From assembly GCA_041666145.1 (NCBI GenBank), contig JBAYHK010000001.1, positions 3,810 to 67,809 on the forward strand: a DNA stretch of 64,000 nucleotides, written 5' to 3'. A program made the translations under genes and the position numbers. Below the pieces are notes generated by a model that was given only the letters and a program-made list of their open reading frames with translations, made no database searches and was not told the DNA's origin. Of this stretch, positions 3,311 through 58,191 are shown piece after piece (position 1 is the stretch's first letter; every line of letters begins with the position of its first letter). The stretch is from Patescibacteria group bacterium. GTDB lineage: Bacteria > Patescibacteriota > Patescibacteriia > UBA9934.

Positions 3311-3958
3311 CTAAAGCGTGATGATTTTTGTAGGTTTTAAGGCCTCAACAAATGTCTCTGAGTGCGTCACCACAACAAATCCCGTACCAGATAATCGAAG
3401 CTGTTCAATCGCTCGAAGAATAATCGACTGTGTTGGAACATCAACTCCAGAATCGATCTCATCAAGAAGCGCAATCTTCGGCCGTACCACCAACATTTGA
3501 AACGCCTCCGCTCGCTTCTTCTCTCCCCCGCTCATTTCCGAGTTCAATGCCTTTTGCACAAAACCCTCTGGCAAACATAGAGCCTCCGCTGCTTCTCGAA
3601 TTCGACGCTGCGCTTCTGGAACATCGGTAACTCCACACATTGCCTCAAGTGCTGCTCGAGCCATGAATGAAAGAGACAATCCATCAATCGCTGGAGGCTC
3701 TTGATGCGCAAGAAAAATTCCGGAGCGAGCAAGCTCATGGGTCTTATAGGACCTATAGGACTTATGATCAAATAAAATCTCACCGGAAAGAACGTCGACT
3801 CCTTCCAGGCCCATTATTGCAGCGAGCAAAGAACTCTTTCCCGCCCCATTCTTTCCTTGAATCACTACGCACGCTCCAGCATCAACAGAAAAAGAAAGAT
3901 CTGAAAGAATTCGATGTTCATTTCGAGCAATTGAAAGTTGTTGAATCTCAAGCTTCAT
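3311..3958 (-). CDS. sufC: Fe-S cluster assembly ATPase SufC
   Basis: 215 aa; Walker [13 protein letters not shown] signature LSGGEKKR, Walker B LLDEIDSG; carries the in-frame 9-bp tandem repeat insert (YRSYKTHE). Confidence 0.85.
3742..3767. repeat. 9-bp symmetric tandem repeat (ATAGGACCT-type), copy A1, in frame within sufC
   Basis: cttataggacctataggacttatga read directly from the sequence. Confidence 0.8.
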
Positions 3959-14799: not shown

Positions 14800-17121
14800 T
14801 TATCTCCTCGCAGTTCCGTCGCCAACGTAATCTTCCAACTTCACGCTGAGCATTTTGCTTATACCGTCGTCACCCATAGTTACGCCGTACAGCATGTCTG
14901 CCTTTTCCATGGTGGCACGGTTGTGAGTAATGACAATGAACTGCGTTAATTTCCGAAGTTCATTCAAAATGTTTGCGAACCGTACAGTATTTGCTTCATC
15001 TAGGGCAGCGTCAACTTCGTCTAGCACCACAAATGGCGCAGGATTCGTGGCCATAATGGCAGAAACAAGAGCAATTGACGTTAAAGCGCGCTCGCCGCCA
15101 GACAAAAGATTCAGCGCCTTGAGTCGTTTTCCAGGAGGCGTTGCCTGAATGTCGATGCCGACAATGGCGTCTTTTCGCTCCAGCACCCGCCTTGTAATCG
15201 CCTCGAGCGTATCGACGTCGTCGTGATGAACAAGCTCGTCGAGTACCAATGGATCCCCGCCTACGCGGGGATGACTGGACGCATCCAAAGACCCATCTTC
15301 AAGCTCCTCTTTTGTGAGTTTCACCAACGAACACCGTCCGCCACCAAACAAAATTGCAAAATACTTTTGAAACTCAGTCGCGATCGCTTTAAAAGCAACG
15401 TCTGACTGTTCACGAATCTGAACATCGAGTTCGTCAATGACTTTCTCGGTCGAAGCAATGGCATCGCGAAGATCTGCAACCTGCGTCGACAAAAACGTAA
15501 ATCGCTCATCAGCTTCTTTATATTCGGCAACGACTGTTTCTTCAATCCCACCAATAAGCTCAAGCTGATGTCGCAAGCGAAGCATCTTGTCATGCAAAAC
15601 GACCTCCCCCAGCCCCTCCTTGGTAAGGAAGGGGGTCTCGCTTGGTCGATCCGCGACAATCGACGCAACAAGCTCCGGCACCGCATCTTCCATTTCTTTC
15701 TTCAATCCCTCAATCCGCGTTTCGCATCGCGCAATCTCGATGGCAACCGCATTCGACTGCGCCTCAAGTCCAGATAATTCTTGTTGCAATCTTCGTACCT
15801 CTCGCTGTACACCAAAAACTTCGTTCGTAGCAGTTACCGTCGCCTTTGACTTCTCATCGATAGCAACTTCTACAGCCTTCACACCAGCTTCACACGCATG
15901 AACGCCTTCGAGCGCCACAGAAATTGCATTCACCATTTCTGCACTCGGCGCAAAGTCATCCGGATTCGGCCGCGTCAATCGCTCACGCAACTTTTTCGAT
16001 CGCGTTGATATCGACTCAAGATCGGAAATGATCGGCACAAGATCGGCAAGATCAGAAACAGCTTTCAATCGAAGCAATAACGACTCGTGCGCCGCAGAAA
16101 CATCTCGAACCTCGGCGATAATGTCTGGAAGCGGCAATGGTGCCCACGTTGTTTGCGACGCGACTTTTGCAAGCTCTAAATCTCGCTCCGCCGCAAAATG
16201 AACACGCCGAGCGTCAGCCAAATCTTGTTGCGCCTTTTTATACGCCATCTGCAAACCGCTCATCGAACCATCGTCATTCACGTTCGGCATTTGCGCAGCC
16301 TCAATAGCCGCAAGCCTTGCATCTCCAGTCGCCAATTCCGCTTTCTTCGCCGCAACACGTTCCATCGCAATCTTCGATCTCCCATCAACCAGATTCTTCT
16401 CATCAATCAAGTTCCACCACTGCACACCGAAATACTGCGCCGACACTTCTTTCAATTCCGCAGCAACAACTTCTCTGTCATTCAACCGCTTCACTTGCCG
16501 CTTAAGCATGTTCAAACGCGGCTCAAGTTCACGCAGCACCATTTCCACGTCTGCCAAATTCTCCGCAGACTTCTGCAGCTTCAACAGCGCCTGATGTCGC
16601 TTAATCTGGAAGCCCCTTACTCCAGTCGCGTCGTCGAAAAAGACTTTCCTGTCTTCTGGCGACGCAGTAAGAACATGGTCAATCATGCCTTGGCCAATCA
16701 CCGAATACGATCGTTGCCCAACACCAGCTTCTGCCAACAACAACTGAATATCTGCCAATCGCACCACCGATCCATTTAACAAATATTCCGACTCGCCATC
16801 ACGATAAAGTCGACGAGTCACCACGACTTCAGAAAATGAAACGTTCAATGTATGGTCGGAGTTATCAAAAGTCAGGCTCACCTCAGCAAAACCTGCACGA
16901 CTCCTGCCCTCTGCACCCGAAAAAATCACGTCTTGCGCTGCCTTTCCTCGAAGCAGCTTCATGGACTGCTCCCCTAAACACCACCGAATTCCGTCTGCAA
17001 TGTTCGACTTTCCACTCCCATTTGGCCCAACAATCACCGTCACAGCATGGTCTCCCTTTTTTGGCGCCGCAAACAAAAGCGTTGTTTTTTGAGCAAACGT
17101 TTTAAACCCCTGAAGCTCCAT
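14800..17121 (-). CDS. smc: Chromosome segregation protein SMC (unusually short, ~774 aa)
   Basis: N-terminal Walker A VGPNGSGKSNIADGIRWCLGEQS; C-terminal signature LSGGERALTSIALVSAIM...VLDEVDAALD; start set at MELQGFK; two different in-frame palindromic inserts (family C: HPRVGGDP; family B2: ETPFLTKEGLGEV). Confidence 0.8.
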   Translation of the reverse strand: MELQGFKTFAQKTTLLFAAPKKGDHAVTVIVGPNGSGKSNIADGIRWCLGEQSMKLLRGKAAQDVIFSGAEGRSRAGFAEVSLTFDNSDHTLNVSFSEVVVTRRLYRDGESEYLLNGSVVRLADIQLLLAEAGVGQRSYSVIGQGMIDHVLTASPEDRKVFFDDATGVRGFQIKRHQALLKLQKSAENLADVEMVLRELEPRLNMLKRQVKRLNDREVVAAELKEVSAQYFGVQWWNLIDEKNLVDGRSKIAMERVAAKKAELATGDARLAAIEAAQMPNVNDDGSMSGLQMAYKKAQQDLADARRVHFAAERDLELAKVASQTTWAPLPLPDIIAEVRDVSAAHESLLLRLKAVSDLADLVPIISDLESISTRSKKLRERLTRPNPDDFAPSAEMVNAISVALEGVHACEAGVKAVEVAIDEKSKATVTATNEVFGVQREVRRLQQELSGLEAQSNAVAIEIARCETRIEGLKKEMEDAVPELVASIVADRPSETPFLTKEGLGEVVLHDKMLRLRHQLELIGGIEETVVAEYKEADERFTFLSTQVADLRDAIASTEKVIDELDVQIREQSDVAFKAIATEFQKYFAILFGGGRCSLVKLTKEELEDGSLDASSHPRVGGDPLVLDELVHHDDVDTLEAITRRVLERKDAIVGIDIQATPPGKRLKALNLLSGGERALTSIALVSAIMATNPAPFVVLDEVDAALDEANTVRFANILNELRKLTQFIVITHNRATMEKADMLYGVTMGDDGISKMLSVKLEDYVGDGTARR
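15250..15275. repeat. Palindromic element family C, in frame in smc
   Basis: tggatccccgcctacgcggggatgac. Confidence 0.8.
15603..15637. repeat. GC-rich palindromic element family B2 (CCCCTCCTTGGTAAGGAGGGG core), in frame in smc
   Basis: cctcccccagcccctccttggtaaggaagggggtc. Confidence 0.85.
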
Positions 17122-17204
17122 GCGGGAGAGATACATATGCCGGCAGTGTAAATGAAGTCTCCCCTCTTTACTAGACAATCTGGCTTATCTCTGCTATTTT
17201 TCCT

Positions 17205-17282
17205 CGTCCTTCTCTCCCTGCAATCCCTCGAAAATCTCGAGGCATTCCAGGGCAACGGCAGCAGGCAAGCTGGCGTTGAAAC
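17205..17282 (+). promoter_or_regulatory. Conserved cassette leader, copy 1 (hybrid of leader types II and I)
   Basis: tccctgcaatccctcgaaaatctcgaggcattccagggcaacggcagcaggcaagctggcgttgaaacatggagg; core cagggcaacggcagca present in all eight leaders; SD immediately upstream of the start. Confidence 0.6.
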
Positions 17283-18113
17283 ATGGAGGCTCAAATGAGC
17301 AACAATAAACCAAAAGGGTTCTATATCAACACAGAAGGACATCTTGTGCCACCACTTGGCTGCAAGAATATCAACGAAGGGCTCAATGCTCTGGAAACTG
17401 TCTTGGCCGAAGCTCCTGAAGATGCGGATTCCGAGGTTATTGCGGTTCCAGAACCAGGGGTATCCCCATGGATATTCCGGACTCCAAAACCGAACGAAGC
17501 TACAAAAGTAGACAGCGAAGACAGCGTCCTCTACTTCTTCTGGGCAACGAACGAAAAGTCTGGAGACCAGTGCATCGTCATGTTCAACGGTCACCATGAC
17601 GGCAAGGAAGACAACCTCTGGCGCATCGTCACATCTGAAGAATGGAGACGAGCCAAACTGGGCGACGAAGTTTTTCGGCTATTCGCAAATGCCAATGCTG
17701 CAAAGACGGCATGTCCTAACGGGTTACTCGTCACGACGTTCTTCGACGGTCCTTGGAAAGGAGTCGTTGTCCATTCCACAAGAAGCAATGACCGCGACAT
17801 CTCCTACTGCACAAACCCCAATCTTCTCGAAACGCTCGGCATACCAGACGGCATACCTCTCGAGCTAGAAGCATGGAGGCAGGCAACATCAGAAGGAACA
17901 TTGTTCGGTCAACTCCTTCTCAAATACGCCGTCCCAAGCTGGACAACCAATCTGGAATACAACGAGATCGGACCAGTGATTATACGGATGATCGCCACCA
18001 GTGATGGAGGAATCTGCATCCTTGTCCGCGATGACAATGAATACGGAGTCCGGTTTCTCTGGAGAAGCATGGATCACGAACAAGGAAAGCTGCTTCTCGA
18101 ATTTGCTCGATAA
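17283..18113 (+). CDS. Cassette-array protein, long form L1 (uncharacterised family)
   Basis: 276 aa; shares FFWA-x-N ... W(R/Q)xxxLG ... VHS motifs with L2-L5 and the core with S1-S3; followed by hairpin terminator cacgcccgctgcgccaaaggtgcagtgggcgtg. Confidence 0.6.
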   Translation: MEAQMSNNKPKGFYINTEGHLVPPLGCKNINEGLNALETVLAEAPEDADSEVIAVPEPGVSPWIFRTPKPNEATKVDSEDSVLYFFWATNEKSGDQCIVMFNGHHDGKEDNLWRIVTSEEWRRAKLGDEVFRLFANANAAKTACPNGLLVTTFFDGPWKGVVVHSTRSNDRDISYCTNPNLLETLGIPDGIPLELEAWRQATSEGTLFGQLLLKYAVPSWTTNLEYNEIGPVIIRMIATSDGGICILVRDDNEYGVRFLWRSMDHEQGKLLLEFAR

Positions 18114-18166
18114 AAAACGATGCTCACGCCCGCTGCGCCAAAGGTGCAGTGGGCGTGCCTCTCAAT

Positions 18167-18252
18167 ATTCCCTCCCTGCAATCCCTCGAAAATCTCGAGG
18201 CATTCCAGGGCAACGGCAGCAATGAAGCTGACGTTGGTTTGTTAGGAAAGAA
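18167..18252 (+). promoter_or_regulatory. Conserved cassette leader, type II, copy 2
   Basis: ctccctgcaatccctcgaaaatctcgaggcattccagggcaacggcagcaatgaagctgacgttggtttgttaggaaagaagtg. Confidence 0.6.
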
Positions 18253-19134
18253 GTGATGGGAGAAAAAAGAGAAAAAGATCCGACATGGTTCAGCGTCCGT
18301 GCTGGTGTACTCATTCCGCCCAGTGAATATGAAAGCGTACAACTCGCACTACAGAACTCGCATCCGACATACGTCGAATACAGCGAGCGACTGATATCGA
18401 ACAGGCCGTGTGTGGCCATTGGCGAATATCACAGACTCATCGCCCGCCTCCCCAAGGCCAAGGAGATGCTCTGTGTGATGAACACCAAATCAGGACTGGG
18501 CTACGAAGCAATCAACATCAGCCTTCTCTTCTTCTGGGCTTTCAATGAAGAAAAGGGAGGGAAAGAGCTCATCGTCTGGTGCTACTCGAGCCACTCGGAT
18601 GAAGGGAGACGCTGGATTGCCCTCTCAAGTACCGAATGGCGTACCACGCCCCTCGGACTCCACGCCGTGCGGAGATTCAAGAACGTGGAAGCGGCCAAGC
18701 TCGGATGCCCGGTCGAGAACCTCGTCATCCTTCCGTCCAAGGCCGAGAACGGATGGACCCGGTTCATGGTCCACAGCCCGTTCGACGACGCAAGCCACAT
18801 CGCAACGCTCATGAGAAGTCTGCCTGCCAATGTGCTCGGAATTCCAGAACACACAAGACTCCCAATCTCACTCTGGGACTGCGAAGGTCTCGCTGAAGAC
18901 TTCACACTCGAACGCGTCTGCCCATGCCTCATGGATGAATGGTCTGATCCTGAAGAAGGAAAGACCGACATCCCCATGCGTCAAGCAATCCTTTGGATCG
19001 GTGTAACGAGCCTCGGTGAGTACATCATCGTGACCTGCCAGTGGATGAGTGACACGAACGTGGCCGCCATCTCCTGGAAAATGTTCGCGCACGAAGACGG
19101 CGACCGGATCTTCAAGCAGAAAGCGAAAAGCTAA
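18253..19134 (+). CDS. Cassette-array protein, long form L2
   Basis: 293 aa; LFFWAFNEEKGG...LIVW...EWRTTPLGLHAVRRFKNVEAAKLGCP...GWTRFMVHSPF. Confidence 0.6.
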   Translation: MMGEKREKDPTWFSVRAGVLIPPSEYESVQLALQNSHPTYVEYSERLISNRPCVAIGEYHRLIARLPKAKEMLCVMNTKSGLGYEAINISLLFFWAFNEEKGGKELIVWCYSSHSDEGRRWIALSSTEWRTTPLGLHAVRRFKNVEAAKLGCPVENLVILPSKAENGWTRFMVHSPFDDASHIATLMRSLPANVLGIPEHTRLPISLWDCEGLAEDFTLERVCPCLMDEWSDPEEGKTDIPMRQAILWIGVTSLGEYIIVTCQWMSDTNVAAISWKMFAHEDGDRIFKQKAKS

Positions 19135-19175
19135 CCTCGACCGCTACGACGACGGCGCCCCACACGCAGGCGCCG

Positions 19176-19241
19176 TCACTCCCCTGCGAGGCTTCGAACC
19201 TCTCGAAGTTTCACAGGGCAACGGCAGCAGGCAAGCTGGCG
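19176..19241 (+). promoter_or_regulatory. Conserved cassette leader, type I, copy 3
   Basis: ctgcgaggcttcgaacctctcgaagtttcacagggcaacggcagcaggcaagctggcgttgaaacacggaggttcc. Confidence 0.6.
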
Positions 19242-20123
19242 TTGAAACACGGAGGTTCCTTAATGGAACAACATAACTTCATCGTAAGAAACGGAAGGCT
19301 CTCCCCAAGAGAAGAAGAGGAGAACATGGTCAATGCCTTGCTCAAGGCAGGCGCAACCGACATCCCAAACAACAGCCGCCGATTGGGCCAAGATGAACCA
19401 TGCGTGTTCATCGCTGAGTTCAAGGACCGGCTTATTCCCTTGCCAGAAAAACAAGAGATTCTACGCGTCCGAAACCCCAACGACCGTGATCCGAACCGCA
19501 AATATACCCGCTTAGATCTCATGGTCTTCTGGGCCTTCGACAAGGACATCAACAATGAAGTACTCGTCGTCTGGAACAACTTGAACCACAATGCGAGTGA
19601 CGAATTCGAGTCCTGGATCACCGTATCAAACGAAGAATGGCGTACCACAGTCATTGGCTCATGCGCAGTACGTCAATTCAAAAACGCAAAAATGGCCATG
19701 GATGAATGTCTAGGAGAACCAAACGAAAAGTTTGTTGTTCTGCATGAGGACAAAAAACGTGGATGGAGACGCTGTGCAGTTCACAGCTCACTCGCAGACA
19801 TGTATAGCGTCGTTGAATTCATCATGAGTAACGACTTCCTCGCCAGGAAACTCGGAGCACAAGAACACGTTCGACTCCCATTGCCAGACTGGAAAGACAG
19901 CATCCGTCTCGACAGTAACTGGCTCAGTGACTTCTGCCCCGGCCTCGCCAAAGAAGAATGGCCGAATCCAGAAGAAGGAGAAGAAGGTATTCCGCGAGTT
20001 CTTGCAATCGGGTTCATTAGCCGCGAACACGGAATGGTCATCATTACCTACCAACAAATCGGGAACGTAGCATACGTCTCCCAGCGGGCGTTCAACTGCG
20101 CCATGCTCGAAAAGATCTTTTGA
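19242..20123 (+). CDS. Cassette-array protein, long form L3
   Basis: 293 aa; MVFWAFDKDINNEVLVVW...EWRTTVIGSCAVRQFKNAKMAM...GWRRCAVHSSL. Confidence 0.6.
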   Translation: MKHGGSLMEQHNFIVRNGRLSPREEEENMVNALLKAGATDIPNNSRRLGQDEPCVFIAEFKDRLIPLPEKQEILRVRNPNDRDPNRKYTRLDLMVFWAFDKDINNEVLVVWNNLNHNASDEFESWITVSNEEWRTTVIGSCAVRQFKNAKMAMDECLGEPNEKFVVLHEDKKRGWRRCAVHSSLADMYSVVEFIMSNDFLARKLGAQEHVRLPLPDWKDSIRLDSNWLSDFCPGLAKEEWPNPEEGEEGIPRVLAIGFISREHGMVIITYQQIGNVAYVSQRAFNCAMLEKIF

Positions 20124-20149
20124 ACAGAAGGTGAAGCGAAGAACTGACC

Positions 20150-20215
20150 TCGACCACTACGACGACGGCGCCCCACACGCGGGTGCCGTCGTTTTGCTTT
20201 TGTTTGCAGGGTGAA
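20150..20215 (+). terminator. Conserved cassette terminator (representative copy)
   Basis: gacggcgccccacacgcgggtgccgtc hairpin followed by gttttgcttttg; near-identical copies follow all eight cassette ORFs. Confidence 0.6.
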
Positions 20216-20242
20216 AAACACACGGAACTTCAAAACACGCGG

Positions 20243-20268
20243 AACCTAGTTAGTGACTAACTTAGTTT
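20243..20268. repeat. 27-bp palindrome family E (AAACTTMGTTAG-N3-CTAACKAAGTTT), copy E1
   Basis: aacctagttagtgactaacttagttt. Confidence 0.75.
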
Positions 20269-20345
20269 GTAAGAGCGCATGAGACAGCTCTGGAATAGAC
20301 AGATTCGTAAATCTCTGCTACTTTTCTTCGTCATCAAGTCACAAA

Positions 20346-20441
20346 AACTCTCTGCGAGGCTTCGAGCCTATCGAAGTTTCACAGGGCAACGGCAGCAGGC
20401 AAGCTGGCGTTGAAACATACATCTTTTCAAGGAGAACATCG
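20346..20441 (+). promoter_or_regulatory. Conserved cassette leader, type I, copy 4
   Basis: ctctgcgaggcttcgagcctatcgaagtttcacagggcaacggcagcaggcaagctggcgttgaaacatacatcttttcaaggagaacatc. Confidence 0.6.
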
Positions 20442-20876
20442 GTGACGAATAACCTTCTTCGACGCTTTCATCTCAGAAACGGAGTCGTCCTCCACGAGAC
20501 TGATAGCGAATCCATCGACGAAATATTAACAAGCGTCCTTACAGCCTTCCATCTTCGATCTGCAGATGATGCTAAGCCGTGTATCTTCGTAGAAGGAATA
20601 GATCCATACATCTTTCTTCTGCCTGACGATGAAGTCGCCTCCATCGCCGGAGAAAATTGTCAGATCTTCGCCTTCTTCGCCTCCGACGATTTGAGTGAGG
20701 ATCGGCTCGTGCTCTGGGAAGGAGAAGAAGGTGATCAGCAAAAATTCCTGGTGGTAGACGAGAACGGCCAGAACTGGCAGACCTTGCCGATCAGCGGCAA
20801 AAGAGTTCGGATGTTCAAAAGTCCAGAAGAGGCGCGAACGGCGCTTCAAGACGTCAATCAGAACATCGGGCTCTAG
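20442..20876 (+). CDS. Cassette-array protein, short form S1 (homologous to the central domain of L1-L5)
   Basis: 144 aa; IFAFFASDD...RLVLWEGEEGDQQKFLVVDENGQNWQTLPISGKRVRMFKSPEEARTALQDVNQNIG. Confidence 0.6.
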   Translation: MTNNLLRRFHLRNGVVLHETDSESIDEILTSVLTAFHLRSADDAKPCIFVEGIDPYIFLLPDDEVASIAGENCQIFAFFASDDLSEDRLVLWEGEEGDQQKFLVVDENGQNWQTLPISGKRVRMFKSPEEARTALQDVNQNIGL

Positions 20877-20967
20877 ACCGCCCCTTCACGGCGACGGCTC
20901 CCCACGCGGTGCCGTCGTTTTGCTTTTCAATAGACAAAACCTCTTATTCCTGCTATTCTTCTCTGTT

Positions 20968-21052
20968 CCATCTCCCTGCAATCCCTTGAAAATCTCGAGG
21001 CATTCCAGGGCAACGGCAGCAATGAAGCTGACGTTGGTTTGTTAGGAAAGAA
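20968..21052 (+). promoter_or_regulatory. Conserved cassette leader, type II, copy 5
   Basis: Near-identical to 18167-18252. Confidence 0.6.
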
Positions 21053-21913
21053 GTGATGAGAAGAAAAAGAATCATCATTCGAGATGGAAAACTTATCCCG
21101 CCAAAGAGATGGGGCAGTATGTCACAACTTTGTAGGGATACGAACGAAGTCATCTTCGTCGCGCACGACGACTTCGTAGACCCTTCCAGCCGATGCATAG
21201 TCATAAGCGGATATTGGAAACGATTCGTTCAGGTGCCGGAAAAGAATGAAATCCTTTATGTGCAAAATTGCACACCAGAAGGAACGAACAACCGCGAGTT
21301 CGTCAGCCTCGAAGTCGTTCTGTTCTGGGCCTTCGACGAAGCGAACAACAAAGACGTACTCGTGGCATGGAACGAACGAATCAGCACCTCGACCGTTTTG
21401 CGCTGGACCATTGTCTCCACCGAAAACTGGTCAATCATTCCTCTCGACGAACATGCGGTGCGTATGTTCAACAACGTGGAAGCGGCGGAAACAGCCTGCC
21501 CAAACAAAGAGCTCATTGTTCTGACGGACGAAAACATAAACGGATGGAAATCATTCCATGTTCATAGCCCGCTCGAAGGCCTTGATCGTCGGTGCGATGC
21601 AATCATGCGGTGTAGTTTTGTCGAAACATTCAGCATGCCTGGGCATACAGTGATTCCTGTAGTTTGGTGGGCGTCTGACCCGAGCCTCTCACCAGGCATC
21701 GACGTCGTATGCCCGAGCGTCAAGAACGAACTCCCGAGTCCGACGGAACAAACAAACGGCTGCTATCCCACGGTCTTGATGATCGGAGCCAGAAAGAAAT
21801 CACTCATCATCACGGTCGTGACATGGTCTAGAACAGGAAATTCAACGAGGATTTCCCTCTTCTGGAAAAAGTTCACGGGCGAAAGAGCCAAGGCGGTCAT
21901 GACGCGCAGCTAA
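21053..21913 (+). CDS. Cassette-array protein, long form L4
   Basis: 286 aa; VVLFWAFDEANNKDVLVAW...NWSIIPLDEHAVRMFNNVEAAETACP...GWKSFHVHSPL. Confidence 0.6.
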   Translation: MMRRKRIIIRDGKLIPPKRWGSMSQLCRDTNEVIFVAHDDFVDPSSRCIVISGYWKRFVQVPEKNEILYVQNCTPEGTNNREFVSLEVVLFWAFDEANNKDVLVAWNERISTSTVLRWTIVSTENWSIIPLDEHAVRMFNNVEAAETACPNKELIVLTDENINGWKSFHVHSPLEGLDRRCDAIMRCSFVETFSMPGHTVIPVVWWASDPSLSPGIDVVCPSVKNELPSPTEQTNGCYPTVLMIGARKKSLIITVVTWSRTGNSTRISLFWKKFTGERAKAVMTRS

Positions 21914-21985
21914 ACCTTCCCTCACGACGGCTCCCCACGCGGGTGCCGTCGTTTTGCTTTTGTTTGCAGGGTAAAAAACACGCGA

Positions 21986-22012
21986 AACTTCGTTAGTGAC
22001 TAACGTAGTTTG
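21986..22012. repeat. 27-bp palindrome family E, copy E2
   Basis: aaacttcgttagtgactaacgtagttt. Confidence 0.75.
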
Positions 22013-22077
22013 CGAGACGACTCGAAATGGACAGATTCGTAAATCTCTGCTACTTTTCTTCGTCATCAAGTCACAAA

Positions 22078-22141
22078 AACTCTCTGCGAGGCTTCGAGCC
22101 TATCGAAGTTTCACAGGGCAACGGCAGCAGGCAAGCTGGCG
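22078..22141 (+). promoter_or_regulatory. Conserved cassette leader, type I, copy 6
   Basis: Identical core to copy 4; SD aaggagaacatcATG. Confidence 0.6.
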
Positions 22142-22621
22142 TTGAAACGTACTTTTCACAAGGAGAACATCATGGCCGCCCATCACAGCTTTTTTCTCAA
22201 AGACAAAAGGCTCTGCTACGAAAGAGAAAGTGAGCCAGTTAGCGAGGTGCTCAGAAGGCTTTTAAGCTTCGGAGCCAAAAAAACATTCAGAGATGGAGCA
22301 TGCTTCTGCATTGACGTTAGCAGCTCATCTTCCTCATGCATCTTTTGTACGCCCGAAGATGAGATCGCCACGATCTCCACAGAGGATTCATGGATCTATA
22401 TCTTCTGGGCCTCTGATCCGGAAGGCAGGAATCGGCTCGTGCTCTGGGAAGAAATGGACAATGGGACAGGCTGTCCCGACGAGCAAAAACTACTGGTTGT
22501 GGATGAGGAAAGTGAAGATTGGCAGGCCCTGCCGATCAGCAAGAGGAAGGTCCGAATGTTCAAAAGTCCAGCCGAGGCACAAACGGCGTTTCAAGACGTC
22601 AATCGGAACATCGGGTCTTAG
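22142..22621 (+). CDS. Cassette-array protein, short form S2
   Basis: 159 aa; WIYIFWASDPEGRNRLVLWEEMDNG...LLVVDEESEDWQALPISKRKVRMFKSPAEAQTAFQDVNRNIG. Confidence 0.6.
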   Translation: MKRTFHKENIMAAHHSFFLKDKRLCYERESEPVSEVLRRLLSFGAKKTFRDGACFCIDVSSSSSSCIFCTPEDEIATISTEDSWIYIFWASDPEGRNRLVLWEEMDNGTGCPDEQKLLVVDEESEDWQALPISKRKVRMFKSPAEAQTAFQDVNRNIGS

Positions 22622-22729
22622 ACCGCCCCTTCACGACGACGGCTCCCCCACGCGGGTGCCGTCGTTTTGCTTTTCGAATGGACAAATCCTCTCATATCTG
22701 CTACTTTTCTTCGTCATCAAGTCACAAAA

Positions 22730-22823
22730 ACTCTCTGCGAGGCTTCGAGCCTATCGAAGTTTCACAGGGCAACGGCAGCAGGCAAGCTGGCGTTGAAACA
22801 TCCATTTTTTTCAAGGAGACATC
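22730..22823 (+). promoter_or_regulatory. Conserved cassette leader, type I, copy 7
   Basis: Identical core to copies 4 and 6. Confidence 0.6.
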
Positions 22824-23273
22824 ATGGGCGCTCATCGACGCTTTTATCTCAAAAACGGAGAGCTCTGCTATGGAAAAGAGGGGGAATCTGTCAGCGAGGC
22901 GCTCGAAAACCTTCCAAAATTCAGAGCCAAAGAAACACTCAGAGATGAAGCATGCGTCTGCATTGACGTCAGCAGATCACCTTCCTCATGCATCTTTCGT
23001 GTACCCGGAGACGAGATCGCCAAGATCTCCACAAAGGATTCGCTAATCTATGTCTTCTGGGCCTCAAATCCGGAAGGAAGGGATCGGCTCGTACTCTGGG
23101 AAGAGATGGACGACGGTATGAGCCTTCCCGACGAGCAGAAACTCCTGGTTGTAGATGAGGAAAGTGAAGCTTGGCAGGTTATGCCAATCAGCAACAGGAA
23201 GGTTCGGATGTTCGAAAGTTCGGTCAAGGCGCGAACGGCGCTTCAAAACATCAGCCAGGACATCAGATCCTAG
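22824..23273 (+). CDS. Cassette-array protein, short form S3
   Basis: 149 aa; ~70% identical to S2. Confidence 0.6.
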   Translation: MGAHRRFYLKNGELCYGKEGESVSEALENLPKFRAKETLRDEACVCIDVSRSPSSCIFRVPGDEIAKISTKDSLIYVFWASNPEGRDRLVLWEEMDDGMSLPDEQKLLVVDEESEAWQVMPISNRKVRMFESSVKARTALQNISQDIRS

Positions 23274-23367
23274 ACCGCCCCTTCACGACGACGGCTCCCC
23301 ACGCGGTGCCGTCGTTTTGCTTTTCAATAGACAAAACCTCATATTTCTGCTATTCTTCTCTGTTCCA

Positions 23368-23449
23368 TCTCCCTGCAATCCCTTGAAAATCTCGAGGCAT
23401 TCCAGGGCAACGGCAGCAATGAAGCTGGCGTTGGTTTGTTAGGAAAGAA
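23368..23449 (+). promoter_or_regulatory. Conserved cassette leader, type II, copy 8
   Basis: Near-identical to copies 2 and 5. Confidence 0.6.
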
Positions 23450-24346
23450 GTGATGAGAAGAAAAGTGACGAAAGAAGAAGAAAGAGCAGAAGTTACAATT
23501 CTAAACAGAGATCTCGTCCCGCCAAACGAATACGAGAGCATGACTGAAATGTTTTCCGACCAAAAGAGAATCACCTGGCTGTCGGATGAAACATCTACCG
23601 TGGATCCAGAGGAACCATGCGTGGTCATAGCTGAATACCACAGAAGGATCGTTCGACTGCCCGAAATCAACGAGAGAATTTGTGTACGGAACTGCACGCC
23701 CGGACCATCGGACTACAACGCAGTCGAAATCATGATCATCCTCTTCTGGGCTTTCGACGAGGTACGGAACGAAAACGTGCTCATCGCTTGGGACCACCAC
23801 TTGGATCAAGGCCTGAAAAAGAGGTCAGAAATTTTGCTCTGGACCATGGTCTCCGAAACCGAATGGAACACCACGCCACTCCATCAACACGCCGTGCACC
23901 GGTTCGAGAACATGAAAGCGGCTGAGAGGGAGTGCCCCGTTAAGAATAACGTCGTCCTGACTTCGGCAAAGAAAAAGGGATGGAAACTCCACATGGTTCA
24001 CAGCCCGTTCAAGAAAAAACTTGAGTGCCTCAGGATCGTGATGGATCACAGGTTCCTCTGTTCTGAATTCGGTATTCAAGAACATGTACCACTTCCAGGG
24101 ATAGAATGGGAAAGAAGCTTCGCTCAACAAGATTCTCTACTCAATCATGTCTCCCCTCACTTCATGGAAACGTGGGGAGACCAGTTCGATCCTCCTGATG
24201 TTCTCATGATCGGTATAACCATAGACGCTCCCGGCTTCGTCATTTTGGTCCTTCAGAGGTTGGATGGAAATATGCTCGCCATCTACTCGAGGTCACTGAG
24301 TTACGAAGAGGGAATCGAAGCTTTCCGCCGCAGCATCAAATCCTAA
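23450..24346 (+). CDS. Cassette-array protein, long form L5
   Basis: 298 aa; IILFWAFDEVRNENVLIAW...EWNTTPLHQHAVHRFENMKAAERECP...GWKLHMVHSPF. Confidence 0.6.
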   Translation: MMRRKVTKEEERAEVTILNRDLVPPNEYESMTEMFSDQKRITWLSDETSTVDPEEPCVVIAEYHRRIVRLPEINERICVRNCTPGPSDYNAVEIMIILFWAFDEVRNENVLIAWDHHLDQGLKKRSEILLWTMVSETEWNTTPLHQHAVHRFENMKAAERECPVKNNVVLTSAKKKGWKLHMVHSPFKKKLECLRIVMDHRFLCSEFGIQEHVPLPGIEWERSFAQQDSLLNHVSPHFMETWGDQFDPPDVLMIGITIDAPGFVILVLQRLDGNMLAIYSRSLSYEEGIEAFRRSIKS

Positions 24347-24441
24347 CCCCTTCCCTCACGACGGCTCCCCATGCGGGTGCCGTCGTTTTCGTTAGACGTT
24401 GAACTTTCCGCTTCGCCTAGGTACACTCACCCCTCCCCGGT

Positions 24442-25416
24442 ATGAACCCTATTCTTGCTCAAACCATTCTCGATTCCATGCTCCGTGCAGAGCACATTCT
24501 TCTCATGACCGATGAGCGAATTGATGGTGATACGTTAGGATCGACGCTCGGTCTTTTTCATGTTCTTTCAGACATCGGGAAACGTGTTGACGTCTTTTCT
24601 CCAAAACCAATTCCGAACAAATTTTCCTATCTCCCCGGCATCAAAGCTATCCGCGAAGACGACGCCATTCTTCAGCAATCATCTATCGACCTTGCCATTG
24701 TGTGCGACTGTTCTGACGGCGCATATCTTCCAGCATGCGTGAAAAAAATGTCGAACAAAGTATCCATGATTGTATTTGACCATCACCTGAAGAATCCGCG
24801 ATACGGCACGATCAACATTATTGAACCAACTGCAGCATCGACAGCGGACATTGTGTGGCGATTTCTTCAATCAGCAAATCTTCATATCTCTCCAAATGCG
24901 GCGCAATGTCTACTTACCGGCATCGTCACCGACACTCAAGTCTTCTTTTCGTCCAACACCACAAATGCAGCCATAGAAGCTGCTGCAGAACTCAGCATGT
25001 TGGGCGCAAATCTCCCCGCAATCGTTCAACATAATTTCATGAATAAAAGCACAGCCTCACTCAAGCTTTGGGGACTTGCCATGGAGCGACTGCGAAAAGA
25101 CGAAATATTCGGCGGCATTGCCACAGCACTTACGCAAAAAGATATTCAAAGTCATGGCGTTACCGCAGAAGACATTCAAGGAATCTCAAACTTTCTCAAC
25201 GCCGTTCTGAACGAAACGCACGACGTCATTGTGGTCTATCGCGAACAAGAAGATGGAACCATTAAAGGTAGCGCCAGAAGTCGCACAAAAAACGTTGCCG
25301 AAATTGCCGAACGTCTTTATAGCGGCGGCGGTCACAAACTTGCCGCAGGATTTACGTTAAAAGAGAAGACGATCGAAGTAACGGGAAGCAATTGGAGAAT
25401 TGTACAAAAAAGGTAG
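24442..25416 (+). CDS. nrnA: DHH-family phosphoesterase, NrnA-like oligoribonuclease/pAp phosphatase
   Basis: 324 aa; DHH motif (IVFDHHLKN), DHHA1 GGGH motif (YSGGGHKLAAG). Confidence 0.75.
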   Translation: MNPILAQTILDSMLRAEHILLMTDERIDGDTLGSTLGLFHVLSDIGKRVDVFSPKPIPNKFSYLPGIKAIREDDAILQQSSIDLAIVCDCSDGAYLPACVKKMSNKVSMIVFDHHLKNPRYGTINIIEPTAASTADIVWRFLQSANLHISPNAAQCLLTGIVTDTQVFFSSNTTNAAIEAAAELSMLGANLPAIVQHNFMNKSTASLKLWGLAMERLRKDEIFGGIATALTQKDIQSHGVTAEDIQGISNFLNAVLNETHDVIVVYREQEDGTIKGSARSRTKNVAEIAERLYSGGGHKLAAGFTLKEKTIEVTGSNWRIVQKR

Positions 25417-53734: not shown

Positions 53735-55459
53735 ATGACCGCACCTGCGACAAGCACCCTTCCGCGCCGATATAAACTAAGCGTAATGCTCGGACAAGGC
53801 TCTTTCGGGGAAGTTTGGAAAGCCTGGGATGAAAATCTTCACGCACATGTCGTGATCAAAATCATGAAAGAAGACCTGGCAGAAAATGAAAGCCTCAGAC
53901 TTCGATTTTTCGAAGAGGCGCGAACCATGTTCTCTCTTACAAAGAGAGGCGGTAAATGGTGCCATCGCATAACAGAGGTTCTCGACGTAAGCAATCAAGA
54001 AGCCAAAATCCCCTACATGGTTCTCGAATTCGTTCCAAAAGGGAATTTGAAAGAAAGGCTCCAAAGAGAAAAACCGAGTATCAACGCAGCGCTACAAATG
54101 TTTCTAATGATTCTTCAGGGAATACACGTCGCGCATCATCGCATACTCGACGAAAAACCGGCTGGAGTAATTCATAGAGACATCAAGCCAGAGAACATCC
54201 TCCTCACACATTCTGGCGAACCAAAAATCACCGACTTCGGCGTTGCAAAAGCAGGACAGGTCATGACAGAAACGGGAGTTCAAGACGTTGAGTCTGGCAC
54301 CATCGTCGGCCTTCCTACAGGAACTATGGGTTATGCATCACTAGAACAGCTCGCAGACTCATCCAGCATCGGGGTTACTTCCGACATCTACAGCCTTGGA
54401 GTTGTCCTTGCCGAACTCGTTGCCGGCTTCGATCCTCGCAACTCATGTCTCTTTCTCGAAGAAACTCAGAGAACATCCCTCAGAGAAGTCCCTGATGACA
54501 TTAAAACGGTGATTGTTCGAGCATGCAACGCACAGCCGGAAAAACGCTTCCAAACCATCGACGAGCTCATGACCGCTACGGAAGCGCTGATTGCCGCTCA
54601 TCCGAAAAAAGATGGGGAATCGGCATGGACCGCAAGGGAGAAAAAGGCCGAACCAAAAAAGGAAACTCAGCGGGAAATCTATCCGACCATAGCGCCAGAA
54701 AAAGAAAGCGTGGCCCCCGTCGAGATCGAGACGAAAAAAGAACCGACCGTCGAAATTATGAAAGACGACCGGAAAAGAAGTGGGCTCCGTATATGGATCA
54801 TGTCAGGAATTGATACAAGGCTCCTTGCCCCGATCCTTGTTGTAGCGATACTCGTCATAGTCTTCGGAGTCTTGGCATTCGGACCGAAAGAATCGGTGAT
54901 CGAAACCGTTAGTGCACCAACGGAAGTTGCAGCATCAACGGAACAGGCACCGATCGCAGCCATCGAGCCGACATCGAACGAGCCAGAAATCGCTCCAGGT
55001 CCTACGGCAGTACCGATCGAAACCGAAGAGCCAGCGATTGCCAGAACCGAAGCGGAATCGATCTCTGCGCCGATCGTTACCACCGCTCCGAAATCGGAAC
55101 CAACGAAAGCGAAGACTGAGGCTCCGAAAGTAGAAGCGCCAAAGGTCGAAGCAGTAGCCGTCACGAAGGTCACCATCCGCAACCCCGTGTCGAGCATCGG
55201 CGCGGAAGGAACCATCAAAGTAGAAGCTTCCATTGTTCTGCCAGAAGGCAAGGAGATCGGAAGTGTCACGCTTCGATGGAAAGGATCGGTCGATGGATCG
55301 TGGAAATCAACGCCGTTCGACAAAGGGAAAGCTTCGGCAAGCTTCAAAGCGACTGCTGCGATGGGAACTTCAGTCCAGTACTTCGTCGACGTTCGCCTAG
55401 CCGACAAGCCAGGCGAACCGAACAGAAGCGCGACCGTGATAGCATCGATAACGCAGTGA
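53735..55459 (+). CDS. Serine/threonine protein kinase with TM segment and repeat-containing C-terminal region
   Basis: Gly loop LGQGSFGEV, VIK, catalytic HRDIKPENILL, DFG; TM helix; repeats TEAPKVEAPKVEA. Confidence 0.85.
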   Translation: MTAPATSTLPRRYKLSVMLGQGSFGEVWKAWDENLHAHVVIKIMKEDLAENESLRLRFFEEARTMFSLTKRGGKWCHRITEVLDVSNQEAKIPYMVLEFVPKGNLKERLQREKPSINAALQMFLMILQGIHVAHHRILDEKPAGVIHRDIKPENILLTHSGEPKITDFGVAKAGQVMTETGVQDVESGTIVGLPTGTMGYASLEQLADSSSIGVTSDIYSLGVVLAELVAGFDPRNSCLFLEETQRTSLREVPDDIKTVIVRACNAQPEKRFQTIDELMTATEALIAAHPKKDGESAWTAREKKAEPKKETQREIYPTIAPEKESVAPVEIETKKEPTVEIMKDDRKRSGLRIWIMSGIDTRLLAPILVVAILVIVFGVLAFGPKESVIETVSAPTEVAASTEQAPIAAIEPTSNEPEIAPGPTAVPIETEEPAIARTEAESISAPIVTTAPKSEPTKAKTEAPKVEAPKVEAVAVTKVTIRNPVSSIGAEGTIKVEASIVLPEGKEIGSVTLRWKGSVDGSWKSTPFDKGKASASFKATAAMGTSVQYFVDVRLADKPGEPNRSATVIASITQ

Positions 55460-56198: not shown

Positions 56199-56702
56199 CT
56201 AATCAACCAAAATATTCGTTCGCAAAAGAGTATTACGAATTTGATCAAGGTCGTACGTTGAATAGTCATTCCCTCGTAAATCCAACGTTTCGAGATTTGT
56301 TAGCTGGCCAAGCTCAAGCGGCAAACCGGTAAGTTGGTTGTTTGAAAGATCAAGTGTCTTAAGATGACTCAACTGACCAACCTCTGCAGGCAAGCCAGTC
56401 ATAGCGTTGTCACTCAAATCAAGAACCTCTAATTTGCTCAGCAAACGGATCTCCGCTGGAATCGCACCAGTCAGATGATTGCCGGAAAGATCGAGTTCGA
56501 TAAGGTTCGTTTGTTTAAAAACATCCTGCGATACCTGAGTAAGACCACCATTGCTTAAATCAAGTTTCGTCCCTGAAGTCGAACGAACAGCCTCCTCCTG
56601 TTGCGTACCCGTAAAAACGTCAGCCGTCGAAACGCACCCTGCCCCTATCAAAACGAACGAAAAAGCAACAGCTAGAAACAAATTCTTCAAAGACATATGC
56701 AT
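56199..56702 (-). CDS. Secreted leucine-rich-repeat protein
   Basis: Signal peptide; ~5 LRRs (LxxLxLSxNxLTGLP). Confidence 0.75.
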   Translation of the reverse strand: MHMSLKNLFLAVAFSFVLIGAGCVSTADVFTGTQQEEAVRSTSGTKLDLSNGGLTQVSQDVFKQTNLIELDLSGNHLTGAIPAEIRLLSKLEVLDLSDNAMTGLPAEVGQLSHLKTLDLSNNQLTGLPLELGQLTNLETLDLRGNDYSTYDLDQIRNTLLRTNILVD

Positions 56703-56733: not shown

Positions 56734-57219
56734 TTATCGGCTTAAGACTTGTTCAATAAAAGCACTCTTCCCGGCCAGATACACACTTCCTCCGGTTGGA
56801 TCTTCTTCGAGAAGTCGGAATTTGAGCGCTTCATATTCATGGGCTGCCTCTGGGTGAGCGCGAAGATAATCTCGAAAAAGAATCTGGCGATTCCAATAAC
56901 CAAACTTATCTTTTTGCGCGAGAGAAAGATGAAAGCTTACCGGATCACCTTTTCTAAAAAATAAACGTTCTTGCGAAGAAGATTCAGGAAAGTACTGATA
57001 TCCAATTCTCGATAAGGGTTCGATGAATTGATGCGCGTTTTCAATGGAGGGAATTGCGACCGCAATATCGATAATTGGTTTCGCGGCAATACCCGGTATA
57101 GCAGTGCTACCAATGTGCTCAATCTCTAAAAGAGGATCTTCCAGAGTTTGACGGATTAAGGCACTTTCATCCAGAAATTGCCGACCCCATGAAAGGGATG
57201 ATGACTGTAAAACTTTCAT
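56734..57219 (-). CDS. GrpB-family (UPF0157) nucleotidyltransferase-like protein
   Basis: IEHIGSTAIPGIAAKPIIDIAV motif. Confidence 0.65.
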   Translation of the reverse strand: MKVLQSSSLSWGRQFLDESALIRQTLEDPLLEIEHIGSTAIPGIAAKPIIDIAVAIPSIENAHQFIEPLSRIGYQYFPESSSQERLFFRKGDPVSFHLSLAQKDKFGYWNRQILFRDYLRAHPEAAHEYEALKFRLLEEDPTGGSVYLAGKSAFIEQVLSR

Positions 57220-57252: not shown

Positions 57253-58191
57253 TTATTTTGCGCTTGTACGTTCAAGGATTGAAAACCCATCTTGAACCGC
57301 GTCGCAGAGATAATCTTCCAGCTGACTATGGTCACCATTCGTTTGCGCTTTGTTTAAATACGTATAATATAGTCGTTTTTGTTCCTGACGAATAACGGCT
57401 GGCGCATAGTTAGCCGCAAGCATCATCGCATTCATAAGAAGCCGTCCTACGCGTCCATTACCATCAGAAAACGGATGTATCTGCTCAAAACGAGCATGAA
57501 TCTTTGTAGATATACTCACAATGTCGCCGCCGTGCTTCTTATTCGCAACCTCTCTCATAACTTCCTGCATCAAATCCGGCACACGAAGGTAATTTGCAGT
57601 AGGAACGTTCACGCCAACAATCCTCACTGCATGATTACGATACAAACCGGCATCAGGCCGAACGCCGTTCATAAGAATACTGTGAAGTTTAAGAACAAAT
57701 TCCTCATCCAGCCTCTCACCATTTTTAACATGGTCAAATAAGTAGTTTAAAGCAGTTTGATGATTCTTCGCCTCCAATTGTTCAGACATGGTCTTGCCAG
57801 ACAGAGCGACGTTATCAAAAAGAATCGCCGCCGTATCTGGCTCCGTGAGCGTGCTCCCCTCTATGCAATTACTGTGATAGGTAAGCTTTAGAATGAATTG
57901 GTCGCGAACATCTGGATGATTCAAAATTTCATCAATTACGCCTTTATATTCTGCCGACTTCTCATGCAAGAATTTCTTCTTAGCCCTAATCTGTTCGTCT
58001 GAGATAACTTTTCCTCCAGTCACCTCCAAAAAAAGGTCTTCAATTGCAGTAATCATTTTTGGACGTGGAACAGATTTGCCAGTCCACCAACCATTAAATG
58101 CCACAAAAGAAACCCCAATTCTTTCAGCCAGCTTTGTCTGAGTCACTCCCAACGAAGTTTTGATGATTTCAAGCTTTTGGCGCGTAGTCAT
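57253..58191 (-). CDS. Fic/DOC family protein with N-terminal HTH
   Basis: Fic motif HPFSDGNGRVGR; N-terminal HTH TQTKLAERIGVS. Confidence 0.85.
   Translation of the reverse strand: MTTRQKLEIIKTSLGVTQTKLAERIGVSFVAFNGWWTGKSVPRPKMITAIEDLFLEVTGGKVISDEQIRAKKKFLHEKSAEYKGVIDEILNHPDVRDQFILKLTYHSNCIEGSTLTEPDTAAILFDNVALSGKTMSEQLEAKNHQTALNYLFDHVKNGERLDEEFVLKLHSILMNGVRPDAGLYRNHAVRIVGVNVPTANYLRVPDLMQEVMREVANKKHGGDIVSISTKIHARFEQIHPFSDGNGRVGRLLMNAMMLAANYAPAVIRQEQKRLYYTYLNKAQTNGDHSQLEDYLCDAVQDGFSILERTSAK

Follow-up and report, generated by a model that had tools for sequence, protein, structure and literature searches.

A candidate two-hairpin leader RNA in a tandem array of fast-evolving paralogous genes between smc and nrnA of a Patescibacteria bacterium

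Introduction

Short structured elements of the 5'-untranslated region (5'-UTR), located just upstream of the Shine-Dalgarno (SD) sequence, are known from ribosomal-protein leaders, the ThrRS operator and phage coat-protein operator hairpins. A leader of this kind is described here for an array of eight paralogous open reading frames (ORFs) between smc and nrnA of an uncultured Patescibacteria bacterium, represented by an NCBI metagenome-assembled genome (MAG; array locus tags WC776_03650-03685). The array is part of a stretch of 64,000 nucleotides (assembly GCA_041666145.1, contig JBAYHK010000001.1, positions 3,810 to 67,809, forward strand), hereafter the window, in which all coordinates are counted from the first letter; it had been singled out in a first-pass annotation made from the letters alone. 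The array is, with fair probability, a lineage-specific tandem expansion of one fast-evolving gene with an ancestral, co-regulating RNA leader, and the flanks of its copies have been homogenized.

The leader shares with structured mRNA leaders its position, its conservation by covariation, its tie to one gene family across genomes, and the placement of its conserved bases in stems and a mismatch, as in a protein-binding hairpin. A conserved secondary structure with compensatory changes across homologous genes, by which such leaders are recognized, is present. The leader differs in having no Rfam match, and the array proteins are acidic, unlike the basic ribosomal proteins. Judged from its predicted structure, it falls within the broad class of structured cis-regulatory leaders but into no described family.

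Divergent genes behind near-identical flanks are known from other systems. The vsp, vlp and vsa families of Mycoplasma are tandem paralogs with near-identical promoters, 5'-UTRs and first codons and highly divergent bodies. They encode surface lipoproteins with signal peptides, and employ site-specific inversion or promoter slippage and a dedicated recombinase. The array resembles them in its divergent gene bodies between homogenized flanks, but is devoid of lipoprotein or other signal peptides, inversions or invertible segments, slippage tracts and a dedicated recombinase. The rAID-1 loci of Bacteroidales also contain co-directional, divergent small genes and repetitive, conserved intergenic sequences, together with a 5' XerD-like recombinase, a skewed low G+C content, mixed immunity families and mobile elements (10.1101/471110). 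The array, in contrast, has no recombinase, consists of one family in a fixed slot between housekeeping genes, and has a G+C content of 0.51 versus 0.475 for the rest of the window.

When about 60 ORFs from all parts of the 64 kb were scanned with Pfam, no integrase, tyrosine or serine recombinase, transposase or reverse transcriptase was detected, and hence no adjacent IntI or XerD-like gene. The array also lacks the unrelated promoterless cassettes with attC-like sites and the skewed G+C content of integrons and rAID-1 loci (10.1101/471110). Its repeats are non-coding flanks, not the coding template/variable repeat pairs of a diversity-generating retroelement (DGR), and no reverse transcriptase domain occurs in the window. 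Because recombinase and reverse transcriptase are absent, only one family is present and the G+C content is not skewed, the array is not an integron, a rAID-1 locus or a DGR; for integrons and DGRs this had already been concluded in the first-pass annotation.

Organization of the array

The interval between smc and nrnA holds eight homologous ORFs, all on the plus strand as first annotated, and the elements of the array span positions 17172-24392. The starts of three ORFs were reset to an ATG or GTG downstream of an SD sequence. Five ORFs are long forms: L1 (17295-18113, 272 aa), L2 (18253-19134, 293 aa), L3 (19263-20123, 286 aa), L4 (21053-21913, 286 aa) and L5 (23450-24346, 298 aa). The three short forms are S1 (20442-20876, 144 aa), S2 (22172-22621, 149 aa) and S3 (22824-23273, 149 aa). 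They align to the N-terminal part of the long forms (~150 residues), S1 being the N-terminal module alone; the earlier assignment to a central module is thereby corrected. Amino acid identity between paralogs is 21-65%, somewhat lower than the 30-70% first estimated.

The leader and its conserved structure

In minimum free energy (MFE) folds, every leader of the window adopts the same two directly adjacent hairpins, termed P1 and P2. P1 spans about 16 positions, is interrupted by 1x1 internal loops and has an apical UCGA/UCGA stem. It reads CCCUG-c-AAU-c-CCUCGA / UCGAGG-c-AUU-c-CAGGG in type II leaders, and the equivalent helix of type I leaders is GAGGCUUCGA / UCGAAGUUUC. P2 (CAACG-G-CAGC, a 6-nt loop, GCUG-R-CGUUG) has about 9-10 bp, a CAGC/GCUG upper stem and a purine-purine mismatch, G·G or G·A, at its centre. 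A conserved GAAAC or GAAAGAC usually follows P2, and a strong SD sequence (GGAGG or AAGGAG) lies 7-20 nt from its end. These two helices (CCCTG...CAGGG with 16 positions, and CAACG-G-CAGC / GCTG-R-CGTTG, when written as DNA) take the place of a gtttcaca...gttgaaac stem suggested earlier. Six leaders folded singly gave the same MFE structure; relative to dinucleotide-shuffled sequences, their z-scores are -2.5 to -4.4.

The 3' end of P1 and the 5' arm of P2 together form a 16-mer core, CAGGGCAACGGCAGCA, of which eight exact copies were found, one upstream of each ORF. Nowhere else in the 64 kb does it occur, even at three mismatches (0.47 matches expected by chance). In 596 Gb of genome contigs, for which a 15-nt form of the core is too short a pattern, 120 single matches in unrelated taxa (L003-L122) were obtained; they are regarded as chance matches and were disregarded. 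The invariance of this core had been noticed in the first-pass annotation, as had the two leader types and the mixed nature of copy 1, all of which were confirmed by comparison of the leader sequences. Type I leaders are located upstream of L3 (19178-19255), S1 (20346-20425), S2 (22078-22155) and S3 (22729-22808) and are 94-100% identical over 68 nt. Type II leaders precede L2 (18170-18249), L4 (20970-21049) and L5 (23367-23446), with 97-99% identity. The leader of L1 (17212-17289) is a hybrid: its P1 is of type II, its P2 loop and 3' tail are those of type I, and the breakpoint lies inside the invariant 16-mer.

The P1/P2 architecture is also present, with a different sequence, upstream of distant single-copy homologs on five other contigs (L124, L127, L129, L132 and L133). 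P2 reads CAGGA-G-CAGC / GCUG-A-UCCUG in L127 and L132, CACA-G-CAGC / GCUG-G-UGUG in L124, and CAGCGUGAACG / CGUUCAUGCUG in L133. In an alignment of 15 leaders, 90% of the pair cells are canonical, versus 25-39% when the partners are slid by 1-3 columns. Compensatory two-sided change was observed at 14 of the 25 base pairs, and G-U pairs are frequent. From these aligned leaders a covariance model was built, which matched solely upstream of family genes, with no other credible match in the window. The model scores 48-87 bits on the sense strand, compared with no more than 34 bits on the antisense strand; the leaders of the array score 87.5 (L1), 85 (L2), 82.4 (L3), 79.6 (S1), 86.1 (L4), 78.3 (S2), 80.2 (S3) and 86.4 bits (L5). 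A search of the window with Rfam 15 at gathering thresholds returned rRNA and tRNA only, and even at E<=1 over positions 17100-24500 no match to the leader was obtained.

The leader is a candidate for a new cis-regulatory 5'-UTR RNA, undescribed so far. It is more than a by-product of duplication, because the same P1 and P2 precede distant single-copy homologs. The compensatory changes upstream of these homologs also lend support to co-regulation through a common 5'-UTR element, one of the two options first put forward for the array.

Two other secondary structures were considered and rejected. A stem P0, which pairs upstream pyrimidines with the SD sequence in some MFE folds, has its 5' partner in or before the -10 box. 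P2 as an attenuator terminator was discarded as well; a U-rich tail is found in type II leaders only.

Relatives and synteny

Single-copy, distant homologs of the array genes (about 20-38% identity) occupy the same chromosomal slot in other Patescibacteria contigs. In the window the slot is bordered on the left by smc (14800-17139, minus strand; a short SMC of about 780 aa) and on the right by nrnA (24442-25416, plus strand; DHH/DHHA1). The gene of the family protein P0016 (contig L132) follows smc, which is on the minus strand, P0024 (L133) is preceded by smc on the minus strand and an ASCH gene and followed by nrnA, and P0019, on a JGI contig, is followed by nrnA. The gene of P0012 (L129 and L130) lies between a cut, unannotated minus-strand gene and a DHH/DHHA1 gene, and L127 starts with the 5' end of smc on the opposite strand. 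A more distant branch, P0013, sits elsewhere in its genome.

Between the window and these relatives, identity is 78% for SMC, 59-69% for NrnA and 75% for a methyltransferase encoded nearby; the family protein, which can be aligned over only part of its length, reaches no more than 24-38%. From this comparison with SMC and NrnA the family evolves very fast. On the gene order and identities given above, the family gene is an old resident of the smc–nrnA slot and evolves at several times the pace of the genes beside it.

A related array, with four or more long-form genes in tandem, lies on the ENA contig L002. It carries the same terminator, promoter and leader modules as the array in the window. 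The identical sequence is present on the JGI contig L123, the only contig recovered in a scan of metagenome contigs (100% identical to L002). The Logan contig L001 adds a fifth relative with an identical type II leader and an L2-like 3' end. The comparison of cassette numbers, which had been proposed as a check, gave a single copy in the relatives with distant homologs in the slot, at least four in L002/L123 and eight in the window. By the same comparison, a single-copy gene at a conserved position is the ancestral state, and the eight-copy array and the array of four or more copies in L002 are derived.

The SMC proteins of this lineage comprise about 770-790 aa (L132, 1518-3824; L133, 1020-3332), and smc is always transcribed divergently from the family gene. 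Bacterial SMC proteins usually have about 1,180 aa. In L133 the small gene between smc and the family gene (3427-3753) has a weak match to the ASCH domain; its presence there indicates that the slot tolerates insertions in other lineages.

Protein family

The family had not been recognized from sequence in the first-pass annotation, and profile searches led to no known family either. An exhaustive search of 1.84 billion cluster representatives with hidden Markov models yielded only 31 family proteins, and in that set short forms occur in this genome only. Only two proteins resulted from a second, word-indexed search that was started from the distant group. Pfam, NCBIfam and PADLOC gave no match for any of up to 29 members, and no meaningful match was obtained when PDB was searched by sequence profile with family members. 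Relatives were found neither in a protein-pattern scan of GTDB species representatives nor among IMG/VR, INPHARED phages and PLSDB plasmids. Foldseek comparison with viral structures returned nothing at E<=0.001.

The proteins are hydrophilic (negative grand average of hydropathy) and rich in Trp, with isoelectric points of 4.4-6 except for L4 (8.1). No hydrophobic N-terminus was seen on reading the paralog sequences, which agrees with the earlier statement that signal peptides are lacking. The proteins are acidic in general and are predicted to be cytoplasmic and composed of two modules. AlphaFold models of L2 and S2 have a pLDDT of 86 and 75, respectively. Structure comparison suggests a weak fold resemblance to FHA-like beta-sandwiches (EssC and the cytoplasmic domains of PrgH/MxiG) and to PsbP/Mog1/DUF1795 folds (Eag chaperone, DcrB, LpqN). 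The canonical phosphothreonine-binding residues of FHA domains and an FHA profile match are absent from the family. Fast divergence, copy-number expansion and acidity suggest that the family may serve in binding or inhibition, in a conflict with factors of the host, of phages or of competitors.

One such role would be that of orphan or polymorphic immunity proteins, each paralog neutralizing one toxin variant and the repertoire growing by duplication and exchange. Small-to-medium acidic cytoplasmic proteins encoded in a same-strand array are what this role would predict, and the evolution of the family is extremely fast relative to the neighbouring genes. The repertoires of the related arrays differ, with no cross-array protein pair above 54% identity, and some of the folds that are weakly resembled, such as Eag/DUF1795, are linked to toxin systems. 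However, no toxin, effector or delivery genes are located near the array: its neighbours are trmD, khpA, methyltransferase genes, smc, nrnA, the gene of the CCA-adding enzyme, ruvC, rpoBC, recA and ftsK, and none of the 29 members searched matched SUKH, Imm or any other known immunity family in Pfam, NCBIfam or PADLOC. The analogy with polymorphic immunity arrays, drawn in the first-pass annotation, is unsupported, and an immunity function is considered rather unlikely.

Predicted transcription units and proposed action of the leader

Returning to the preferred explanation, a tandem expansion with a co-regulating leader, the transcription signals of the array were located as follows. A sigma70-like promoter, T(A/G)GACA-N17-TAYTYT with TG, is predicted upstream of L1 (17172-17200, TAGACA-N17-TATTTT with TG, in the divergent smc/L1 intergenic region), S1 (20296-20324), L4 (20931-20959), S2 (22028-22056), S3 (22679-22707) and L5 (23328-23356). 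No promoter-like site was found upstream of L2 or L3. The leader lies between the predicted -10 box and the SD sequence, a position that, like the strand asymmetry of the covariance-model scores, would fit an element of the transcript, and L2 and L3 keep a complete leader despite having no promoter of their own.

A near-identical terminator had been ascribed to every unit. This holds for six of them, in which a GACGGC...GCCGTC hairpin is followed by a T-run: L3 (20161-20203, a 13-bp stem and then TTTTGCTTTTGT), S1 (20882-20927), L4 (21915-21966), S2 (22628-22675), S3 (23279-23324) and L5 (24349-24392). It does not hold for L2, the hairpin of which (19151-19177) is of the terminator type but without a T-run, nor for L1, which is followed by an unrelated hairpin (18125-18157) that is probably no terminator, since it also lacks a T-run. 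As no promoter precedes L2 and L3, L1-L2-L3 probably form one transcript, and the likely transcription units are L1-L2-L3, S1, L4, S2, S3 and L5.

According to the proposed explanation, one ancestral single-copy gene, restricted to a Patescibacteria lineage, would have given rise to five copies of full length and to three that keep just the N-terminal module, each with the ancestral two-hairpin 5'-UTR element of the gene. Six copies would have a sigma70-like promoter and an intrinsic terminator of their own; L1-L2-L3 would share one promoter, with a leader kept at each cistron. In the mRNA the leader may act as a shared operator through which all copies answer one signal. Its most likely form would be a protein-binding site that sets translation and/or mRNA stability. 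The protein may recognize the CAGC/GCUG stem with the purine-purine mismatch, which is close enough to the SD sequence to affect ribosome loading, and P1, near the 5' end, may also stabilize the message. Direct binding of the family proteins to their own leader is less likely than control by another factor, because the encoded proteins are acidic. A riboswitch is less likely too, because conserved junction or loop nucleotides are lacking.

Several points weigh against this explanation. The promoters, the transcription start sites and the RNA nature of the leader are predictions. The covariation set comprises about 15 leaders from roughly 7 lineages, and the eight array copies are not independent of each other. 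Some distant homologs lack P1 or the whole motif (L128, L134, L135); L128 and L134 keep only a P2-like hairpin, and L131 and L135 differ altogether. In the related array, one leader (L002, 359-428) has lost the apical half of P2 (CAACGG----AGCTGACGCTG), with P1 and the SD sequence retained; it may be a natural loss-of-regulation variant. The dN/dS ratio of about 0.46 for S2/S3, the closest pair (dS 0.44, dN 0.20), does not demonstrate positive selection. Finally, the conserved stem bases are palindromic (TCGA..TCGA, CAGC..GCTG) and may also be read as half-sites of a DNA operator.

If the leader acted as DNA, P1 and P2 would be palindromic operators of a dimeric transcription factor, a roadblock repressor, with no RNA structure involved. 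The invariant bases form inverted repeats of typical geometry (TCGA-N5-TCGA; CAGC-N4-6-GCTG), and a separate palindrome in the spacers, described below, shows that DNA-binding sites may exist in the locus. Nevertheless, the complementary stretches comprise 16 and 10 positions and show compensatory changes, well in excess of a usual operator, and the frequent G-U pairs would be mismatches on the other strand or in a symmetric operator. In addition, the covariance model scores 2-4 times higher on the sense strand than on the antisense strand, and the leader is kept at L2 and L3, which have no promoter that could be repressed. A DNA operator is for these reasons distinctly unlikely.

The long spacers after L3 (20205-20275) and L4 (21955-22017) contain tandem AAAACACRCGRAAC repeats followed by a near-perfect palindrome, TAGTTAGTGACTAAC(T)TAG. 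Its copies, TAGTTAGTGACTAACTT at 20247-20263 and a second one at 21990-22006, have too short a loop for an RNA hairpin, and the palindrome may thus be a candidate site for a dimeric DNA-binding protein. When as many as 2 mismatches were allowed, 6 matches to it were counted in the window versus 0.06 expected by chance; 4 of the 6 are both-strand matches at the two spacer sites. The palindrome is kept in the related array L002 (about 250-310 and 1385-1445).

Possible role in an episymbiotic lineage

Patescibacteria have very small genomes with few known regulatory RNAs, and their lineage-specific genes are mostly without known function. The locus adds a candidate RNA motif that is supported by covariation and is associated with a new family of hypervariable proteins. 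Eightfold amplification of a fast-evolving gene in a reduced genome suggests that the gene is probably important in interactions with hosts, phages or competitors. Under the preferred explanation, the extreme divergence would reflect an arms race of binding or inhibitor proteins with factors of these three sources, and the partner of the family protein, if found, could reveal a conflict system specific to these episymbiotic bacteria. It is further possible, and is put forward tentatively, that the locus represents a new class of cis-regulatory RNA for a conflict-driven hypervariable family, and a recombinase-independent repertoire. Its homogenized flanks of promoter, leader and terminator would then hold all copies to one control signal and serve as RecA substrates for the duplication, truncation and exchange of divergent cassettes between related genomes.

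Alternatively, the paralogs might be effectors that are exported to a host bacterium without a signal peptide and diversify in step with their targets in the host. Members of the lineage are believed to be epibionts of other bacteria (PMC12102498), and fast evolution with expansion in one lineage would fit such a role. Some distant homologs (P0011, P0013, P0015, P0017, P0018, P0025, P0026 and P0028) end with a conserved motif at the extreme C-terminus, F(T/S)HEEA...L-x-L-COOH, which could be a degradation or recognition tag. This tail is not conserved in the array paralogs, though, and no secretion-system genes are located near the locus; signal peptides are absent and no contextual link was found. 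Export as effectors is quite improbable.

Homogenization of the flanks

The third component of the preferred explanation is the homogenization of the flanks, which are 97-100% identical within the array. The intergenic regions between S1 and L4 and between S3 and L5 (terminator, promoter and spacer, leader, SD sequence) differ at 4 of 176 nt. The identity of the adjacent coding sequence drops to 35-65% in 60-nt windows no more than a few codons past the start. The better conservation of the non-coding flanks, as noted at first sight, was thus borne out. The P1-P2 cores of the S2 and S3 leaders are 100% identical. Pairs of L paralogs have a dS above 1 (NG86), and 47-58% of their four-fold sites differ within codons for identical amino acids. 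The identity of the flanks reaches a few codons into both ORF ends: MMRRK and IFKQKAKS are common to L2 and Y1, which are otherwise about 37% identical.

In genomes with 78% identical SMC, the orthologous leaders keep the structure but not the sequence, so that function alone does not require 97-100% identity. The RNA structure accounts for the conservation of pairing and not for the near-identity of the remaining flank. Since the near-identical flanks adjoin nearly saturated synonymous sites, they appear to be under concerted evolution by homologous recombination or gene conversion, as was suggested at the outset. The hybrid leader of L1, taken at the level of its sequence, attests directly to recombination between leaders. 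RecA-dependent gene conversion or unequal crossing-over may keep the flanks, including promoter spacers and terminators, near-identical, and conversion tracts would end where the coding regions are too diverged to recombine; recA and ruvC are both encoded in the window. The locus would be a clean natural example of concerted evolution limited to regulatory flanks.

Cassette exchange or phase variation, in which the flanks would be recombination sites for capture, shuffling or switching as in integrons, rAID-1 loci and Mycoplasma vsp/vlp, was also considered. Near-identical flanks surround divergent cassettes, with identity running into the ORF ends, and related arrays hold other cassette sets behind the same flanks. 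However, the 64 kb contain no recombinase, integrase, reverse transcriptase or transposase, and switching by inversion is impossible because all units face one way. Homopolymer or short tandem tracts were not seen in the promoters on reading the intergenic sequences. None of the cassettes is predicted to be silent, the units having an SD sequence, a promoter (six of their own; L2 and L3 via L1) and, except for L1 and L2, a terminator. The proteins are also identical in two independent MAGs of the strain, in the same order by locus-tag spacing. Such a system is very improbable here, and the analogy with phase- or antigenic-variation loci, drawn at first, is unsupported.

That strain variants of one hypervariable gene were joined through their shared flanks is practically negligible: repeats of the length of these flanks (100-180 nt) are a familiar source of error in short-read assembly, but the terminator-to-promoter junctions have several distinct forms, the proteins of L2, L5 and S3 are 100% identical in a second NCBI MAG (WCT28_00130-00160, with equal locus-tag spacing and hence the same gene order) and on a 171-kb ENA contig, and the related tandem array turned up in ENA and in JGI data alike. 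For these reasons the array is genuine and no assembly artefact.

Further features of the window

Downstream in the window a Ser/Thr protein kinase is encoded at 53735-55459 (plus strand). It is followed by a cluster on the minus strand (56199-56702, 56734-57219 and 57253-58191) for leucine-rich repeat, GrpB-family and Fic/DOC proteins; all four are possible interaction or effector genes.

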